A stretch of 62,007 nucleotides of DNA, from contig CACGIM010000003.1 in assembly GCA_902573115.1 (NCBI GenBank), forward strand, positions 1-62,007, in the 5' to 3' direction. Both the position numbers and the translations under genes were made by a program. The notes beneath the pieces were generated by a model. That model searched no databases. It was not told the origin of the DNA and saw only the letters and a list, made by a program, of their open reading frames with translations. The DNA is from an uncultured Candidatus Poseidoniales archaeon (GTDB lineage Archaea > Thermoplasmatota > Poseidoniia > Poseidoniales > Thalassarchaeaceae). Shown here piece after piece: positions 18,996 to 25,838 of this stretch (its first letter is position 1; each line of letters opens with the position of its first letter).

Positions 18996-19280
18996 AGCAA
19001 ATGCCTCAACGCCCTCTTCTTTGAGAAGCCTCTTCTTCTGTTTTGAACCGCCGGGACCGCTGTAACCCCCAATTCTACCATCAGACCGAATTACTCTGTG
19101 ACAAGGCACAGCTATTGGGTGGGGATTTTTCGAACATGCGTTTGCGACAGCCCTAGCCGCATTCGGTCTTCCTATTGCCACTGCTACATCTTTGTATGTC
19201 ACTGTTGTGCCTCGTGGAATATTCTTGATTTGGTCCCATACCATTCTCTGGAATGCAGTGCTATTTGACTCTCCAGTCAT
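18960..19280 (-). CDS. ogt: O6-methylguanine-DNA methyltransferase (MGMT, C-terminal domain only)
   Basis: IPRGTTVTYKDVA, AARAVANAC, VPCHRVI active site. Confidence 0.92.
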   Translation of the reverse strand: MTGESNSTAFQRMVWDQIKNIPRGTTVTYKDVAVAIGRPNAARAVANACSKNPHPIAVPCHRVIRSDGRIGGYSGPGGSKQKKRLLKEEGVEAFASEVSEKDCKGP

Positions 19281-19582
19281 TCACTTTCTTCCTTCGACTT
19301 TTCTTCAGGCTCTTCTGATTCGCCCATTCCGATGATTTCATAATTAGAAGGGAAAAGAGCGATTGCAACGCCAAAAATAATGCAACCCAGTCCAAACCAG
19401 AAAGATTTTCTGATCATCAATTCCATGCCAATCGCAAAAAGTATCAGTCCACCTACATTGGACACCCACACCAGGGTCTTGAAGGTGGACAAGGATACGC
19501 CAGTCGACCTCTTTGATCGCTTAGGCCCAAACTCCGCACCGAATCTAACCGGGTCACTTTTTGCCACTTTCTCACCTGTCAA
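19277..19582 (-). CDS. Small 2-TM membrane protein
   Basis: Two hydrophobic helices; overlaps both neighbours in the operon. Confidence 0.6.
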   Translation of the reverse strand: MTGEKVAKSDPVRFGAEFGPKRSKRSTGVSLSTFKTLVWVSNVGGLILFAIGMELMIRKSFWFGLGCIIFGVAIALFPSNYEIIGMGESEEPEEKSKEESE

Positions 19583-19934
19583 TCATAATTATGGCATCAG
19601 TTGGGCAACCTAGAACGCATAGTTTGCATCCCGTGCAGGGGTCCCTGAGTATTCTGGCCTTCCTGTTTACCTCTATATCCATTATTGGACTTGCCATCGG
19701 GGTATCGTAGAGCTCAATGGCATCATCGTCACAGACTATTGTACACTGGTCACATCCAATACACTGTTCTTCTTTGACCCATGCGACCCTATCCTCTCCC
19801 CCGATTATCTTTGCTTCCTCTTCAGCTTTCATAGAATTGAGCATTATCCTTATTCTAGACTGCTCCGCAGCTCTCCTCTCTAAAAGATCGGGAATATCTG
19901 TCATGTAATTCATTATCCCGCATGCGGTTTGCAT
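19572..19934 (-). CDS. 2[4Fe-4S] ferredoxin-like protein
   Basis: CIGCDQCTIVC and CTGCKLCVLGCP. Confidence 0.88.
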   Translation of the reverse strand: MQTACGIMNYMTDIPDLLERRAAEQSRIRIMLNSMKAEEEAKIIGGEDRVAWVKEEQCIGCDQCTIVCDDDAIELYDTPMASPIMDIEVNRKARILRDPCTGCKLCVLGCPTDAIIMIDR

Positions 19935-19958
19935 TTATGATAGTGAGTTCCTTGTTCC

Positions 19959-22766
19959 CTACTTAGATTCATTGATCTGCCTTGCAAGGAAACTTACTAC
20001 ATCGAGTATTTCGAAGTCGTATCTAGGATCGCCCTCAAATTTCAAACACTCGAAGTGAGCCACGCATTTCGGGCAAGTAGTCAACATTATGTCGGCCCCA
20101 GTCGCCCTCACCTCATCGAATCTTTGGACTCTGAGCGCCCTGCTATTCTCGTTGCAGGACATCATACTAGATACTCCGCAGCATAGAGCGTCTTCCCCCG
20201 TATGCTCCATCTCAACCATGCTTACTCCATCCACAGAATTCACTAGGTCCCGAGGTTCGTCGTAGATGTTCATCTGTCTTCCAAGTCTACAAGGATCATG
20301 GTAAGTCACAGTCACTTCGTCATCAGTTTTCAGGCTCATGTCGAATCCCTTTTCCACTAAGAATTCCGTTGTGTGCATGACCTTCATTTCGTCTAATTCG
20401 TAATCCATAGCAAAAGTTCTGAAGCACTCCGCGCAAGAAGTCACCAGTGTCTCAATTCCACTCTCCCCCAGTTTCTTCTGATTGTACGCCTTTAGTTTCT
20501 CAAACACCTCGGTCATACCCTGCCATTTCTGATCGTGCCCGCAACACTTCAGGAAATCCCTTCCGAGATATGTGACTTCTTCCCCCATCTCCTTGAAAAT
20601 GGTGAAAGCCGATGTTGTGGTATCGCCTAAGTCCATCTCGCCCTTATTCAGGTGGCTGAAAACCATCTCCTGATCTATGTAGTCTACACATCCGGGATAG
20701 TATCCCACGCTGGAGTCTAACGGGTATTCCTCGACGGGTATGAAGGACTCATCTGCATCCTCCTCGGCCTCAGCTGCAAGAACCGCTTGAAGGACAGTAT
20801 GAGGTATCTCTGTAGCCGGAGGGCCACCTACGACAAGATTCCTCCTAATGTCGATGTAAGAGTCGTAGTCGACCAATTGTGGACATGCGTTCGTGCAAGC
20901 GGTACATGTTAGGCACGAATAGAGTGGCACACCATCGTCTTCGTTATTCCACGTATTGTAGATGATATTCAACTTATCACCGGCATTGAACAGTCTGACT
21001 GGGCACGCATCGTCACAAAGGTCACATCCGTAGCATTTGTTCATCTCCCACTCATAGCCCCTGGCCATACTCCTCATCATCATGAAAACTAGTGCCCCTA
21101 CTCCCAGACAAGGTATGAACAGCGAATAGATTAGCTTAGCATCAAGACTCTTTGGGTTCTTCTGGAAAGTAGGGTTGTTGACAGACATAGTAGAGAGCTC
21201 CTCAGTACTAAGGCTGACATCGGATCTCATCAGGGCCGTACCATCTTCAGCCAAGAGAAGGGGCTGGTAGGATACTGCAGAGTAGTCGGATATCATAGTA
21301 ACGGAATCGTTCACTCCCTCCGTACTGAGGCCGAATGTTATGGTGTATGTTGAGCCTGCATCAAGATATAGTGTTGTAGAGTCGCACGTGACCCCGTCGT
21401 TACTCCAAACCAAATCTCCCGCAGAGTCTGTAAGTGCAAGGCTTTGCATGTGAGTCCCAGCACCCCTAACTGTTGTCCTAAAGTTACAACCTACGTCAGT
21501 GGGCACCTTCTCCATCCCCAGGTCTTCAACTAGGAAAGAGGATGCGTGCTCTGACACTATCGGGCTTCCGTCTTCCAACCCATCGTAAATAATTTCATCG
21601 GCCCCTATATTTCTCCCTGTTTGGGCGTCAGCGTGACCATTATCTCCGGAGAAATCTATTATGTCGGCTCTAGTAGGCTGATAGATTCCCCAATTAACCC
21701 AATGAACTGCTGGTAAAACGCACCAATCCGCGTAATCGTCTCCTTCATGCATTGAATCCCACACATCGAGATTGCTGGTCGTCTCGTACGGAAGACACTC
21801 GCCTTTCCAGTCGTCCCAGACGTTCCCAGTTTCTACATGGACCAGTGTATCAGAGGGTTGCCCTCTTATTCCATCAAGCTCTTCGATTTTTGCGTCGTAC
21901 TGGTATTCCCAGAAACCCATGGTGCCTAGTCCTCTCTGGTTCCAAAAGCCATTCTCGTACATCGGCCATGTGACGGTACAAAGAAGGATGGTAGTGATCA
22001 ATGACCCGACAGCTATCTGCCTTCCTAGGAAAGGAGTGAGTCTTGATCCCATTGGGCCCAATAGGAACTTCCTCACAGAGAAGTAGAGAATAACAAAAAT
22101 AAAGATTCCAGTTAGAATCCATGGGACGGCATTGAAAACCTCCGCGGTCCAAGGAGCTTGAGTTCCACACATGAATGAACCATGAGAGTTTGCCCAACAG
22201 TAATCAGTTCTATTTTGGGCGTACAACTCCAGGAAGATATTGATGGCAAAAACTGAGATGAACCACACGTGCGCCAAATATGCAGCTCCGGCGGAAGCAA
22301 ACCATGGATCTTCGACGCCCCTCTTCTCTCTCTTGCCGAGAATGAATGGCGGTAGCGCCAAGATTGTCACAGGAATGCCCGTGATCAGGGCGCCCCACCA
22401 GCCTGCGTTCCAGGATATTATGGGCTGGCCAAAGAACTCACCTATAGGTCCCGCCGGAATATCGAATTGAGGCAAATATTCCCCCCACCTCAAGTATCCG
22501 TAAGAGAATAGAACGTACCAGTCGGGGAATACGAAACCTGCCTGAGCGTAAGGGTCCGCCGCGTTGTGTAGTGGTGGTGGTATGACCCAGGCGTAAAATG
22601 CAATAACCATCACTATAGATGAGAAAATTATGGTGTCTCTCAAGACCTCGGTTGGGAAAGAGTGCCCAGTGAAAACCCTCCTTCTCTCGTCCTCTGCCTC
22701 AAGAAGCTGCTCCTTCTCAGCAATGTACGTGTCAGCAATTCTCCCAAATCGTTGTAGTAATCCCAT
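19959..22766 (-). CDS. Cytochrome b6 subunit IV (PetD-like) fused to an extracellular domain and an HdrD/GlpC-like 2[4Fe-4S]+CCG module
   Basis: N-terminal FPTEVLRD...NAADP...FPDWY (PEWY-like); later CYGCDLCDDACP, CLTCTACTNACP, YYPGC, KCCG, VTSCAEC, YHDPCRLGR, LCCG, TTCPKC. ATG 22766 follows GGGTGA. Confidence 0.9.
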   Translation of the reverse strand: MGLLQRFGRIADTYIAEKEQLLEAEDERRRVFTGHSFPTEVLRDTIIFSSIVMVIAFYAWVIPPPLHNAADPYAQAGFVFPDWYVLFSYGYLRWGEYLPQFDIPAGPIGEFFGQPIISWNAGWWGALITGIPVTILALPPFILGKREKRGVEDPWFASAGAAYLAHVWFISVFAINIFLELYAQNRTDYCWANSHGSFMCGTQAPWTAEVFNAVPWILTGIFIFVILYFSVRKFLLGPMGSRLTPFLGRQIAVGSLITTILLCTVTWPMYENGFWNQRGLGTMGFWEYQYDAKIEELDGIRGQPSDTLVHVETGNVWDDWKGECLPYETTSNLDVWDSMHEGDDYADWCVLPAVHWVNWGIYQPTRADIIDFSGDNGHADAQTGRNIGADEIIYDGLEDGSPIVSEHASSFLVEDLGMEKVPTDVGCNFRTTVRGAGTHMQSLALTDSAGDLVWSNDGVTCDSTTLYLDAGSTYTITFGLSTEGVNDSVTMISDYSAVSYQPLLLAEDGTALMRSDVSLSTEELSTMSVNNPTFQKNPKSLDAKLIYSLFIPCLGVGALVFMMMRSMARGYEWEMNKCYGCDLCDDACPVRLFNAGDKLNIIYNTWNNEDDGVPLYSCLTCTACTNACPQLVDYDSYIDIRRNLVVGGPPATEIPHTVLQAVLAAEAEEDADESFIPVEEYPLDSSVGYYPGCVDYIDQEMVFSHLNKGEMDLGDTTTSAFTIFKEMGEEVTYLGRDFLKCCGHDQKWQGMTEVFEKLKAYNQKKLGESGIETLVTSCAECFRTFAMDYELDEMKVMHTTEFLVEKGFDMSLKTDDEVTVTYHDPCRLGRQMNIYDEPRDLVNSVDGVSMVEMEHTGEDALCCGVSSMMSCNENSRALRVQRFDEVRATGADIMLTTCPKCVAHFECLKFEGDPRYDFEILDVVSFLARQINESK

Positions 22767-22776
22767 AATATCACCC

Positions 22777-23649
22777 TCAATGCGGCTCCGCAATACCTTG
22801 TACCCAAACAATGAACAAGTGGGCAAGAATTAATGTGGTTACAATCAACGGAAGGACAAACACATGAAGGAAGTACATCCTAACTACCGTCTGCCCTGTT
22901 AGCGTAGTGCCCCCGAACATTGCGTTCGCGACCCATTCGCCAATAAGTGGTGTAGCCATCGCCATGTTGATTCCTATGGTCGCAGCACCGAAAGCTAAGC
23001 TATCCCATGGCAAAAGGTAGCCGGAATAACCAAAGAAAATCGTGAAGAACATGAGTGCAACCCCAATTAGCCAGTTGAGCTCTCGAGGGTTCCTGTATGC
23101 TCCAGTGAAGTAAACCCTGCACATGTGCAAGAATACTGCTGCTACCATGAAATGTGTTGTCCAGTGGTGAATGGATCTTATGATGTATCCGAAAGGAAGC
23201 TCTAGCATGATAAATTCCATCGAGGCATAGGCAGGGGTTGGGTCCGAATCTAGGTCTCCTCCTGGCACGTAGTAAAAGCCCAGTATGGTGCCAGTGATTA
23301 CCAGGATGATAAATGCCAGGAAGGAAATTCCCCCTAAACAGTATAGGGGGTACCAGTACCAGATTATCCTGAGTTTGTATTTCTCCGCATGGGTAAGCGG
23401 CATCTGCCGGTGCATACTACTGTACGAATCCCTGGTCATCCCCCAGTAATCCTGAATCCTGAACCTAGTATCCAACCAGGAAAACGCCCAAAGGAAAGTT
23501 TTCTCAGCCAGCCCCATGCTTCCTGCATTTGTCTCTACCGCCCTGAGTATGTCTTTTCTAGGGAGGTCATCCCTCTCCCTCCTGAGTGTGAAAGCCACAA
23601 TTACAACCACGATGGCTATGAATATCCAGAGGAACCAGAATTGAATCAT
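22777..23649 (-). CDS. petB: Cytochrome b6-type N-terminal subunit (PetB)
   Basis: YCLGGISF, RSIHHWTTHFMVAAVFLH, GAYRNPRELNW, GYLLPWD, LH-x14-H. Confidence 0.95.
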   Translation of the reverse strand: MIQFWFLWIFIAIVVVIVAFTLRRERDDLPRKDILRAVETNAGSMGLAEKTFLWAFSWLDTRFRIQDYWGMTRDSYSSMHRQMPLTHAEKYKLRIIWYWYPLYCLGGISFLAFIILVITGTILGFYYVPGGDLDSDPTPAYASMEFIMLELPFGYIIRSIHHWTTHFMVAAVFLHMCRVYFTGAYRNPRELNWLIGVALMFFTIFFGYSGYLLPWDSLAFGAATIGINMAMATPLIGEWVANAMFGGTTLTGQTVVRMYFLHVFVLPLIVTTLILAHLFIVWVQGIAEPH

Positions 23650-23659
23650 ATTTCATCAC

Positions 23660-24508
23660 CTACCCGCAGAATGTGTACCAATCGAGAAAATCTGGAAGAG
23701 CCTCTATGGTGTCTCCATTAACAGTAAACGGAATCAGCGGCATGCCATAAGGTGCTGGGCCTCCGGTTTTCTTTACTCCAATGAAATCAAACTCCTGGCC
23801 GTTAGACCTGTTCCTTGCCGTGTTTTTCTCTATTACGGTATGATCGTATCTACTCGAATGGCATATGCAGAAGGACTTTTGTCCCCCGCTATCTGTCCCA
23901 CCGGGTAGCCAATTATCGTTTGTAAAGTCGTTCTGGACAAGTTGCCACCCCGGAATGCAGCAAAGGTGTGGGCACCTGGCGAAGACGATAACCATGTTAT
24001 CATGTATGTTTAGAGAGGCGTACTCTTCCTTTTCCTCTATCTCAAACCCAGATCCGACATAAGCCCCTCCAGCAGTGTAGCCGTCCATCATCTGAAACCT
24101 AGGCTCGTTCTCTGATAGAGGCTTGTTTTTATTTTCCTCATGAGGAACATAAGTTGCGATTATTGGAAGACCCGACCAAAGACCTGCAGCACCGGCCATG
24201 CCAGTGGGGGAGCTTGCTGCCTCATCCCTGAAAGCCTGCATCGTCATAGGCTGTTTATCCATGCTGCTATACCACACATCAGAACCCTTGGGGACGTAGA
24301 ACTTAATGGATGAATCGGAAGATCCTCCGCTAGACTGCCCCATCAGGAATGAAGCGAATCCAACACTACCGAGAGCACCTAGTGTGATGAGTCCCGCGGC
24401 CGTATTGAATGACAGACGCATAAACGCCCTTCTGTCAATTGCCCCGTTCTTTTCGCTACGAGATTGGCTTTTCGATTCCAGAGGCCTCAGTTTGAAATTT
24501 CTAGACAT
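23660..24508 (-). CDS. Rieske [2Fe-2S] protein with Tat signal anchor
   Basis: DRRAFMR twin-arginine motif, TM helix, CPHLCC and CICHSS boxes, GGPAP. Start at ATG 24508. Confidence 0.93.
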   Translation of the reverse strand: MSRNFKLRPLESKSQSRSEKNGAIDRRAFMRLSFNTAAGLITLGALGSVGFASFLMGQSSGGSSDSSIKFYVPKGSDVWYSSMDKQPMTMQAFRDEAASSPTGMAGAAGLWSGLPIIATYVPHEENKNKPLSENEPRFQMMDGYTAGGAYVGSGFEIEEKEEYASLNIHDNMVIVFARCPHLCCIPGWQLVQNDFTNDNWLPGGTDSGGQKSFCICHSSRYDHTVIEKNTARNRSNGQEFDFIGVKKTGGPAPYGMPLIPFTVNGDTIEALPDFLDWYTFCG

Positions 24509-24510
24509 GA

Positions 24511-24960
24511 TCACACCTCGTATTTCTTCCACGACTCCGTATCGTGACTAGGGATGTACTTGCTCCTGCGGTATTTAACTACCAGTACATCCGGTAATAC
24601 CCACTTCAAATACACGATTCCCATAATTATCAGTGTCAAGAGTGTCATTGCTAGGTTGAAAGAAAGTAATTGCTGGTCCCATTTATTGTATAGTCCATAT
24701 GATAGCGCTCCAGCCCAATACAAAGTCCACAGTATTCCCCAAAGGCCGACTAGCACAATTAGCCATGAGTCTCCCGAGGGAGACACAGTTGCCCGAACCA
24801 CGGTTCCAGGCTTAGGTTCGTTGAAGACACCATGGTCTACGGCTGCTACGAAGTCCTCCTCAGTCAGCTCAGCATCTTCCAAGGCCTTTCTTGCGTCTTC
24901 AACACTAACATCACCTGATTTAACCTTCCTAAGAAGGTCCATCACTGAATCCTCCTTCAT
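24511..24960 (-). CDS. 2-TM membrane protein in the Rieske/cytb operon
   Basis: Two hydrophobic helices; abuts the Rieske gene and overlaps the upstream gene. Confidence 0.7.
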   Translation of the reverse strand: MKEDSVMDLLRKVKSGDVSVEDARKALEDAELTEEDFVAAVDHGVFNEPKPGTVVRATVSPSGDSWLIVLVGLWGILWTLYWAGALSYGLYNKWDQQLLSFNLAMTLLTLIIMGIVYLKWVLPDVLVVKYRRSKYIPSHDTESWKKYEV

Positions 24961-25760
24961 ATTTGATCGCCCCTCCTTAGATGCTTTATTCTTAGCCTGA
25001 GCAGGTTACTCCTGCCGGTGTAATGTCTGGAGAAGCCATACCTGAGGAACAGACCGCAGAAAAGGATCACAAGTATCACTGCCGCGAAACCAAGCAATCC
25101 GAGCCAATGTGCTTTCAGCTTGGCACCCATGTGGTGCAGGTCTGTGTGTTCTTCGACAGGAGCAGGGGGGTTTATGTCTCCATTTCCAGAGAAGACTGTT
25201 TTTGTCCTTCCATTGTCTTCCCCCTCATCTATGCTAGTAGTTAGCCTATTCCACCTATCTAGGTTGGATGGTGCCAAATCCCCATTCACCGAATTCCCTG
25301 CAATTGCGAAAATAACCGTTCCCGTGCCCTCCCCCGGGCTGGTCCAGATGAATGTCCATGCTCTGTCGTTTGTCCTGGAACCTGCATCTGTGTGAGTAAG
25401 ACTTGATTCGTCTTCCTCCCAATTCTGTACAAGGTCCCCCGAGTCTTCAGACGAGCCCAATATCCCTGATGTCACCGTCATTGCGAAGCCTCCTGTATGG
25501 CTATCCATGTCTATTTCAGGACCACCTATCAATTGTAGCTTCATCTCATACTGAGTGTCCGGTGTGTAGTGGAACGGAACACCATCCAATATTACGGTCA
25601 CAGAATTGTCTGGGTCTTCAGCGTGGCAAGTGCATCCTGCTAATGATACATCTCCTTGCCCATTAGCATCTCCACCCACCCCTCCTGGGTATGCTTGACC
25701 CGTTCCGGCTATGAAAACCAAAATGAAAATTATAGCTAACGCTTTCTGGATTGTGGTCAT
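24957..25760 (-). CDS. Exported Reeler-like (choice-of-anchor V-like) protein with CxCH motif and C-terminal TM
   Basis: Signal peptide; AYPGG...AGCTCH; YTPDTQY, GGF, WTFIWTSP...GTVIFAIAGNSVNGD; HHMG...TM helix. Confidence 0.6.
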   Translation of the reverse strand: MTTIQKALAIIFILVFIAGTGQAYPGGVGGDANGQGDVSLAGCTCHAEDPDNSVTVILDGVPFHYTPDTQYEMKLQLIGGPEIDMDSHTGGFAMTVTSGILGSSEDSGDLVQNWEEDESSLTHTDAGSRTNDRAWTFIWTSPGEGTGTVIFAIAGNSVNGDLAPSNLDRWNRLTTSIDEGEDNGRTKTVFSGNGDINPPAPVEEHTDLHHMGAKLKAHWLGLLGFAAVILVILFCGLFLRYGFSRHYTGRSNLLRLRIKHLRRGDQI

Positions 25761-25838
25761 AGTTGTATCACCCGTCACTCAATCCAGCAATCGCTAGATG
25801 GCATTACCATCTGAAGGGGGGATATTAACGTTCCACTC

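Follow-up and report, generated by a model that had tools for sequence, protein, structure and literature searches.

In the marine archaeal order Poseidoniales (Marine Group II, MGII), the subunit IV (PetD) of a Rieske/cytochrome b6 complex is fused to an iron-sulfur (Fe-S) module of the HdrD type, and the fusion is present as one stop-free reading frame of approximately 925-970 amino acids (aa) in 151/151 genomes of the order, covering 22/22 of its genera. The example analysed here lies in a 62,007-nucleotide stretch of DNA of an uncultured Candidatus Poseidoniales archaeon (assembly GCA_902573115.1, contig CACGIM010000003.1), the whole of which is referred to as the window. An annotation made from the letters and open reading frames (ORFs) of the window, below called the original prediction, described the fusion as an electron wire at the quinone-reducing (Qi) side of the complex. 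A wire on the n-side (cytoplasmic side) is indeed the best reading, given a real fusion, a module predicted to be cytoplasmic and conserved cluster ligands; the direction of the flow is inferred. By analogy with EtfD of Mycobacterium smegmatis, we favour electron entry from ferredoxin-type donors through the module into the Qi site, with a probability of roughly 0.45.

The fusion protein of the window consists of the following parts (coordinates of the window):

22212..22766, minus strand: residues 1-185, PetD/subunit IV core with helices E, F and G and the quinol-oxidising (Qo) site motif PDWY at 81-84
21957..22211, minus strand: residues 186-270, outside loop with a Cys pair, then the extra transmembrane (TM) helices H and I
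21135..21956, minus strand: residues 271-544, acidic extracytoplasmic domain, mainly beta-sandwich
21066..21134, minus strand: residues 545-567, sixth TM helix (J), which would take the chain back into the cytoplasm
20787..21065, minus strand: residues 568-660, HdrC-like domain with two CxxCxxCxxxCP motifs for two cubane [4Fe-4S] clusters
19959..20786, minus strand: residues 661-935 and the stop codon, HdrB-like pair of CCG domains

The question of universality in Poseidoniales, raised by the original prediction, is thus answered in the affirmative. In total, more than 1000 fusion homologues were found, on contigs of up to 1.49 Mb. An assembly or gene-calling error joining two neighbouring genes can be dismissed on the grounds that the frame is single in all 151 genomes, in independent assemblies including single-contig genomes and on hundreds of independent contigs. 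The N-termini of the homologues read MGL..., which places the start at the ATG at 22766, and the predicted 935-aa form is therefore the true fusion protein rather than the 955-aa ORF (19959-22826) opened by an upstream TTG.

The N-terminal part can be identified as PetD from the conserved PDWY motif (P81, D82 and W83 invariant and Y84 nearly so in an alignment of 53 sequences), from the matches of the fusion-family profile in the PDB to the C-terminal halves of bc1 cytochromes b (residues 233-357; 5e-12) and to b6f subunit IV (5e-8), and from the shorter fusion homologues, which match the PetD family PF00032 above the cut-off. In the fusion protein of the window itself no direct Pfam match to PF00032 was obtained.

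Hydropathy analysis gave six TM helices in the fusion, at residues 41-59, 125-143, 161-179, 213-231, 251-269 and 545-563. The last of these, helix J, has a Kyte-Doolittle score of 2.2, is followed by RSMARGYEWEMNK and corresponds in the alignment to the final TM helix of the compact fusions described below. The segments predicted to be inside, namely the N-terminus and loops 144-160 and 232-250, show an enrichment of Lys and Arg, and those predicted to be outside (loops 60-124, 180-212 and the 275-aa loop) a depletion. The outside loop 60-124 between helices E and F, which holds PDWY, contains only one Lys/Arg, and in the 275-aa loop there are 46 Asp/Glu versus 13 Lys/Arg. Conserved Cys pairs are found only in the predicted outside segments, where C190/C200 and C427/C461 are kept in 29/29 Poseidoniales-type rows of the alignment. 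Since the six helices obey the positive-inside rule and the Cys pairs are confined to the outside, the Fe-S/CCG module is predicted to be cytoplasmic, as it is in EtfD and HdrDE. The topology originally proposed from a hand count of helices, acidic domain outside and Fe-S/CCG module inside, is borne out by the helix count, the positive-inside rule and the Cys pairs alike. The AlphaFold model of the fusion has a predicted local distance difference test score (pLDDT) of 74 overall, with approximately 85-95 for the ectodomain (strands at 387-499) and 83-90 for the CCG region.

The dicluster domain of the module is matched by Fer4_9/Fer4_8 in Pfam, and the fusion-family profile matches HdrC at 2.5e-10. 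In the CCG half, PF02754 covers two stretches (E=3e-22), and HdrB is matched both by profile (2e-7) and by fold. Across the 53 sequences the cubane ligands C578, C581, C584, C588, C618, C621, C624 and C628 are invariant or almost invariant, the two Cx(n)CCGx(m)CxxC motifs are each complete, and C693, C741, C742, C778, C781, C826, C862, C863, C898 and C901 of the CCG domains are conserved. All 18 cluster Cys are thus invariant or almost so, distant compact forms included, and the two CxxCxxCxxxCP motifs and two CCG domains read in the original prediction are confirmed. By its position, the dicluster domain would be the membrane-proximal end of the wire. None of the curated CCG equivalogs of NCBIfam scored above its cut-off (TfrB 113.8 vs 385, LdhH 76.8 vs 800, GlpC 41.5 vs 278, GlcF 34.3 vs 333, DsrK 33.7 vs 400, TmcB 33.5 vs 735), and because all these scores are far too low, the CCG module of the fusion is, judged by sequence, a distinct subfamily.

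Averaged over the order, identity to the window protein amounts to 92.6% in the 2x[4Fe-4S] domain, 82.6% and 78.1% in the CCG domains, 75.9% in the PetD core and 43.5% in the ectodomain; the 2x[4Fe-4S] domain is the most conserved part of the fusion. For the ectodomain, structure search gave only weak GOLD/jelly-roll matches, and no homologues outside Poseidoniales were found among 1.84 billion representative proteins, from which a search with the N-terminal 570 residues of the fusion retrieved 129 proteins. The ectodomain is best regarded as a fast-evolving Poseidoniales-specific insertion that would be dispensable for the wire. In another family of the order (locus L029:4519-8523, genome G004) there is a fusion of 1334 aa, with an ectodomain approximately 400 residues longer and with PetD and HdrD parts 60% and 77% identical to those of the window protein, respectively. 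At locus L026:5994-7733, and in protein P0222, a PetD homologue is joined to an outward Laminin_G_3 (concanavalin-like) domain and further TM helices, with no Fe-S module. In Thermoplasmatota, PetD thus seems particularly prone to ectodomain insertions.

Compact fusions of 543-690 aa, in which PF00032, the dicluster and two CCG domains are arranged behind four TM helices with no ectodomain, carry source labels that include 'Thermoplasmata archaeon' (on a 2.28-Mb contig) and 'Ca. Geothermarchaeales'. The idea that the fusion is confined to MGII was rejected on account of these compact PetD-HdrD proteins from other Thermoplasmatota and of the one labelled Ca. Geothermarchaeales; by these sequences, the architecture is not specific to Poseidoniales. 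When 50 loci of the phylum were scored, 19 had an HdrD module and 31 a plain or otherwise extended PetD. The module is fused in 11 of the 19, and the remaining eight belong to a sister family of the same class (f4, probably Marine Group III, MGIII), in which the dicluster is still part of PetD and the CCG half is encoded by the following gene, inside the operon. A split in relatives had been named as grounds for refuting the prediction. The CCG half is in fact separate in f4, but it is still within the operon, which therefore supports a functional unit. Whether fused, split or compact, the module stays with the Rieske/b6 operon, the widespread gene order being CxCH protein, two-TM protein, Rieske protein, PetB, PetD with or without HdrD, and ferredoxin; a Rieske gene is found in nearly all 50 loci, including those of the compact fusions. 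At two loci from other Thermoplasmatota lineages (L023:3134-5754 and L024:5903-7462) the compact fusion is followed by HdrA/Qmo-like FAD (flavin adenine dinucleotide) and Fer4 proteins, or by a Fer4 and an FlpD/MvhD protein. This gene order hints at a flavin-based partner in the complexes of those lineages.

The ferredoxin gene is tied to the module. Its product is RnfB/PorD-like (rnfB E=7.8e-12, below the NCBIfam cut-off), and a homologue comes after the HdrD module in 14/19 module loci vs 0/31 loci with no module; the other five module loci are cut by contig ends or have no detectable ferredoxin match. The ferredoxin subunit is the probable outer end of the wire. No HdrE-type partner was found in the operon in the ORF list or with Pfam, the partner of the module being PetB/PetD.

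The operon spans 19277-25778 on the minus strand and comprises seven genes, separated by spacers of at most 24 nucleotides or by short overlaps (ORF list):

24957..25778, minus strand: reeler-fold (choice-of-anchor V) CxCH protein, 273 aa (NF041895 E=2.8e-25)
24511..24960, minus strand: 149-aa protein with two TM helices by hydropathy, a conserved accessory operon gene
23660..24532, minus strand: Rieske [2Fe-2S] protein, 290 aa, with a twin-arginine signal and one TM anchor (TIGR01416 E=1.2e-9)
22777..23649, minus strand: PetB, cytochrome b6-type, 290 aa (PF00033 E=3.8e-42; NF002990 E=5.5e-57)
19959..22766, minus strand: PetD-HdrD fusion, 935 aa
19572..19934, minus strand: ferredoxin-like subunit, 2x[4Fe-4S], 120 aa (Fer4_21 E=3.9e-12)
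19277..19582, minus strand: 101-aa protein with two TM helices, the seventh operon gene, overlapping the end of the ferredoxin gene

The original prediction had listed six tightly packed minus-strand genes, all of which were recovered as ORFs at the positions given there, but it overlooked the conserved seventh (19277-19582). The domain search by hidden Markov models that it called for (PF00033, TIGR01416, PF02754, Fer4, NF041895) agrees with its gene assignments. The PetB gene lies 10 nucleotides upstream of the fusion gene and is itself preceded by the Rieske gene. The assembly, which is 63% complete, contains a single petB, a single PetD and a single Rieske gene.

PetB has four haem histidines, spaced by 13 residues in helix B and by 14 in helix D, and the motif YCLGG, from which attachment of haem ci is predicted. 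The motif definition is CxGG/YCLGG, and YCLGG is present in cyanobacterial, chloroplast and heliobacterial b6 (PMC4122944). The haem-ci Cys is found in 16/19 module loci vs 10/26 scorable loci with no module. A strict coupling between the HdrD module and this Cys was rejected on the 50 loci; the association is non-strict and tracks phylogeny. PetB also has an N-terminal extension of approximately 75 residues, in which a basic stretch comes after an additional TM helix (residues 4-22); the extension is kept in another Poseidoniales family. In the Rieske protein the cluster boxes CPHLCC and CICHSSRY and the twin-arginine signal DRRAFMRL can be read, and the TM anchor is at residues 46-64. In bacteria, the PDWY motif goes with low-potential Rieske proteins. 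Here it is paired with a Rieske protein that has S-Y at positions +2/+4 behind CxCH, a signature cited as 'high potential' (PMC4122944).

On the acceptor side, the first gene of the operon encodes an exported protein with an invariant G-C-x-C-H near its mature N-terminus (C49, C51 and H52 invariant in the alignment of the family) and a C-terminal TM anchor. Its near-invariant His129 is a candidate second ligand. The CxCH motif aligns with the canonical CxxCH of orthologues in another Thermoplasmatota family (f29; loci L030, L034, L039, L041, L044, L045, L048 and L058), and CcmF-/CcmC-like genes (PF01578) were detected in 61/61 Poseidoniales genomes and 20/20 other genomes tested. We know of no precedent for a haem c motif with a one-residue spacer. 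The AlphaFold model (pLDDT 79) matched F-spondin reeler domains in Foldseek (E=2e-7), which together with the NF041895 match agrees with the Reeler-like protein of the original prediction; the matches to cytochrome f (E=4e-5 and 3e-4) are weak, with a TM-score of approximately 0.37. Pfam and NCBIfam gave no match to a cytochrome c1 or f family for any operon product, and CxxCH is absent from all of them. The predicted lack of cytochrome c1 thus holds by homology only: in the CxCH protein, which is built along the lines of cytochrome f, the operon has a strong candidate for an acceptor that is not homologous. As its orthologues carry CxxCH and its domain is also joined to oxidase subunit I, it is probably the acceptor of the Rieske electrons, and a candidate high-potential carrier.

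The same domain is found in the terminal oxidase. A 778-aa protein encoded elsewhere in the genome (C19:9038-11374, minus strand) consists of a choice-of-anchor V domain (NF041895 E=1e-24, with CNCH), a TM helix and a COX1 part (PF00115 E=8.9e-139), and its gene is flanked by a COX2 gene (PF00116) and a COX3-like gene, the latter named with no family check. As the domain is common to both complexes, it suggests that CxCH domains may be the electron link between complex III and the haem-copper oxidase. A third CxCH-domain paralogue (C17:5153-6217, minus strand; 354 aa, CSCH, C-terminal TM helices) adjoins genes that resemble transhydrogenase (pntAB) as read from their letters.

Of the solved structures, M. 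smegmatis EtfD (9ojn_A) is the closest relative of the module by sequence (E=1.7e-20), profile (1e-41) and Foldseek (E=3.4e-13), the next matches being LutA (second by fold), HdrB and HdrC. EtfD carries electrons from a cytoplasmic donor to quinone, along a wire that runs from CCG cluster D1 through CCG cluster D2 and the cubanes D3 and D4 to haem b (7 A) and menaquinone, and its His583 makes the second CCG cluster non-catalytic (PMC13083937). In EtfD, too, the dicluster comes directly after the last TM helix, is followed by two CCG domains and is cytoplasmic. The two proteins differ in the anchor, which is PetD in the fusion and of the five-helix single-haem b HdrE type in EtfD, in the first CCG motif of EtfD, which is CTG and binds a linear [3Fe-4S] cluster whereas both motifs of the fusion are complete, and in the position of the His583 cap, where the fusion has an invariant Glu780. 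The genome also encodes an EtfD-like protein of its own (C2:60739-62754, minus strand), with 671 aa, a multi-helix anchor, two [4Fe-4S] motifs and two CCG motifs, the first of which is degenerate (CSG).

The membrane part resembles b6f and the b6c complexes of Firmicutes and heliobacteria in its split cytochrome b, the 14-residue His spacing of helix D, YCLGG, the Qo motif in the ef loop of PetD and the Tat (twin-arginine translocation) Rieske protein. Like cytochrome f, the CxCH protein has a haem-type motif close to its N-terminus, an ectodomain that is a beta-sandwich, and an anchor at the C-terminus. In contrast to those complexes, the Poseidoniales operon lacks a cytochrome f or c1 homologue, the Qo motif is PDWY and the host is an archaeon; PetD has gained three helices, an ectodomain and the HdrD module, and there are an extra ferredoxin and two small two-TM subunits. 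An HdrD-like protein (HdrC and HdrB fused) wired to membrane b haems is also found in HdrDE, DsrMK, HmeCD, TmcBC and QmoABC, and HdrA/Qmo-like flavoproteins occur in related archaeal operons. The b cytochromes of these systems, however, are of the NarI/HdrE type, and the systems lack both a Rieske protein and a Qo/Qi cytochrome b. Their substrates, CoM-S-S-CoB and DsrC, come from anaerobic metabolisms that one would not expect in this aerobe, and the NCBIfam scores of the fusion for DsrK and TmcB are far below the cut-offs.

Parts of such an arrangement have been mentioned before. In Ca. Angelarchaeales, hdrD-like and rnfB-like genes beside complex III led to a proposal of ferredoxin entry (Diamond et al., 2022, PMC9038741). 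That locus is similar in that the genes adjoin a cytochrome b complex III in Thermoplasmata, but the account is one sentence on gene neighbours in which no PetD fusion, topology, conservation or distribution is reported, and the acceptor is plastocyanin-like. An 'MGII-specific complex III' and an orphan RnfB were noted by Tully (2019, PMC6336850). Bacterial 'PDWF-FeS' cytochromes b are fused to Fe-S/MvhD domains and lie in clusters with no Rieske gene (Kao and Hunte, 2014, PMC4122944). They have in common with the fusion a cytochrome b with a Qo motif joined to 4Fe-4S, MvhD or flavin domains; they differ in that neither a Rieske protein nor CCG domains are reported for them, whereas nearly all loci here include a Rieske gene. 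The literature on Rieske/cytochrome b with HdrD/CCG, MGII, Poseidoniales and Thermoplasmatota yielded brief mentions only and no functional or structural study. The term 'undescribed system' used in the original prediction is therefore too strong in view of these three reports.

In the preferred reading, quinol would be oxidised at the PDWY Qo site of a b6-type split cytochrome b enzyme, and one electron would pass through the Tat-exported Rieske protein to the outward CxCH reeler-fold protein and on towards the haem-copper oxidase. The PetD extension would return the chain to the cytoplasm, where it would bear a four-cluster HdrD-type chain, with two cubanes next to the membrane and two CCG-bound clusters farther out, and the 2x[4Fe-4S] ferredoxin subunit would lengthen this chain. 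Docked, as we infer, under the n-side face of cytochrome b6 beside haem bH/ci at Qi, the module would conduct electrons from reduced ferredoxin-type donors through the clusters into the Qi site in a ferredoxin-assisted Q cycle. The complex would then have a built-in ferredoxin:quinone reductase (FQR), with an analogue in EtfD, whose wire ends at haem b and menaquinone. Entry is favoured because of the EtfD precedent, the dedicated ferredoxin found only with the module, the aerobic heterotrophic lifestyle, the position of the complex as the only complex III and the presence of a separate EtfD-like protein. As to the donor, electron-transfer flavoprotein (ETF) was considered and judged less likely, since a separate EtfD-like protein is encoded in the genome. 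Spelled out fully, for Poseidoniales and for the wider archaeal family with this operon, as a b6f-like complex with a six-cluster n-side FQR, tethered covalently to subunit IV and leading to haem ci/bH, and with a CxCH haem-type cofactor in place of f/c1, delivering to the CxCH domain of the oxidase, the proposal is a tentative one.

Several observations weigh against electron entry. The modules of HdrDE, DsrMK, Hme, Tmc and Qmo mostly carry quinol electrons into the cytoplasm. Both CCG motifs of the fusion keep the double Cys of catalytic Hdr and the His of EtfD is an invariant Glu here, so disulfide chemistry may take place at these clusters. The dicluster region of the AlphaFold model, which is of a single chain with no cofactors, is of low confidence. 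Three f4 loci with the module have Ser at the haem-ci motif, and ten module-free loci have the Cys. In addition, the operon appears to be the only detectable complex III of the organism on the basis of a genome that is 63% complete, and of the literature.

Some of these points speak for the reverse direction, which is the main rival. In such an exit wire, bifurcation at Qo would send the low-potential electron via haem bH/ci and the Hdr clusters to ferredoxin or a disulfide and the high-potential electron via the Rieske and CxCH proteins to oxygen, with no recycling at Qi. The complete CCG motifs, the missing non-catalytic His of EtfD and the HdrA/Qmo-like partners in related operons all fit with it, as does the fact that electrons usually run out of quinol and into the cytoplasm in HdrDE, DsrMK and Qmo. 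With a Rieske protein that bears the S-Y signature, the driving force at Qo would be large. For anammox Rieske/b complexes that carry n-side modules, operation as exit wires has been proposed. We nevertheless consider this direction rather unlikely. MGII are obligate aerobic heterotrophs (Tully, 2019, PMC6336850), which already obtain low-potential reductant from catabolism, and in an organism with this complex III only, half of all quinol electrons would be diverted from oxygen. Catalytic noncubane clusters that lie open to the solvent are expected to be sensitive to oxygen (PMC13083937), and no candidate gene for a disulfide substrate was found in the operon in the ORF list, Pfam or NCBIfam.

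Entry could also proceed by docking of a flavoprotein, if the CCG clusters accepted electrons from ETF, from an HdrA/Qmo-like protein or from a lactate/glycolate-type dehydrogenase instead of free ferredoxin, which is the mode of GlpC, GlcF, LutA, SdhE and EtfD. The ranking of EtfD and LutA among the structural matches and of TfrB, LdhH, GlpC and GlcF among the NCBIfam similarities points this way, as do the HdrA/Qmo-like flavoproteins that directly follow the compact fusions of other lineages. Nonetheless we find it improbable: every equivalog score is far below its cut-off, the ORF list and Pfam gave no flavoprotein gene in the Poseidoniales operon, only the small ferredoxin, and the EtfD-like protein on another contig is available to the genome. 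It is still much less credible that the module lies off the main electron path as a redox sensor, regulator or structural remnant. Some relatives have plain PetD in the same operon, which is nothing positive in its favour, and against it stand the 92.6% identity of the dicluster domain, the retention of all ligands across classes and the co-occurrence of a dedicated ferredoxin gene.

In the surface ocean, few archaea are as abundant as MGII. Since this is apparently their only complex III, its wiring shapes energy conservation in a large share of marine archaeal heterotrophic respiration. The complex is a test case for whether a Qi/haem ci site can take ferredoxin electrons, the proposed FQR route of cyclic electron flow, and equally for whether the low-potential branch of Qo bifurcation can feed cytoplasmic reductions. 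Should the six-cluster FQR reading be true, it would be a natural hard-wired version of the debated cyclic route from ferredoxin to b6f. The compact archaeal versions and the CxCH domain common to complex III and the oxidase offer further testable handles.

The two small membrane proteins of the operon are also conserved. The 149-aa protein has a weak match to DUF7318 (Pfam E=3.1e-5, below the cut-off), and its gene keeps the same position in other Thermoplasmatota operons. The 101-aa gene directly follows the ferredoxin gene in the same genus, with 72-81% identity, and is kept in place in another Poseidoniales family with 54% identity.

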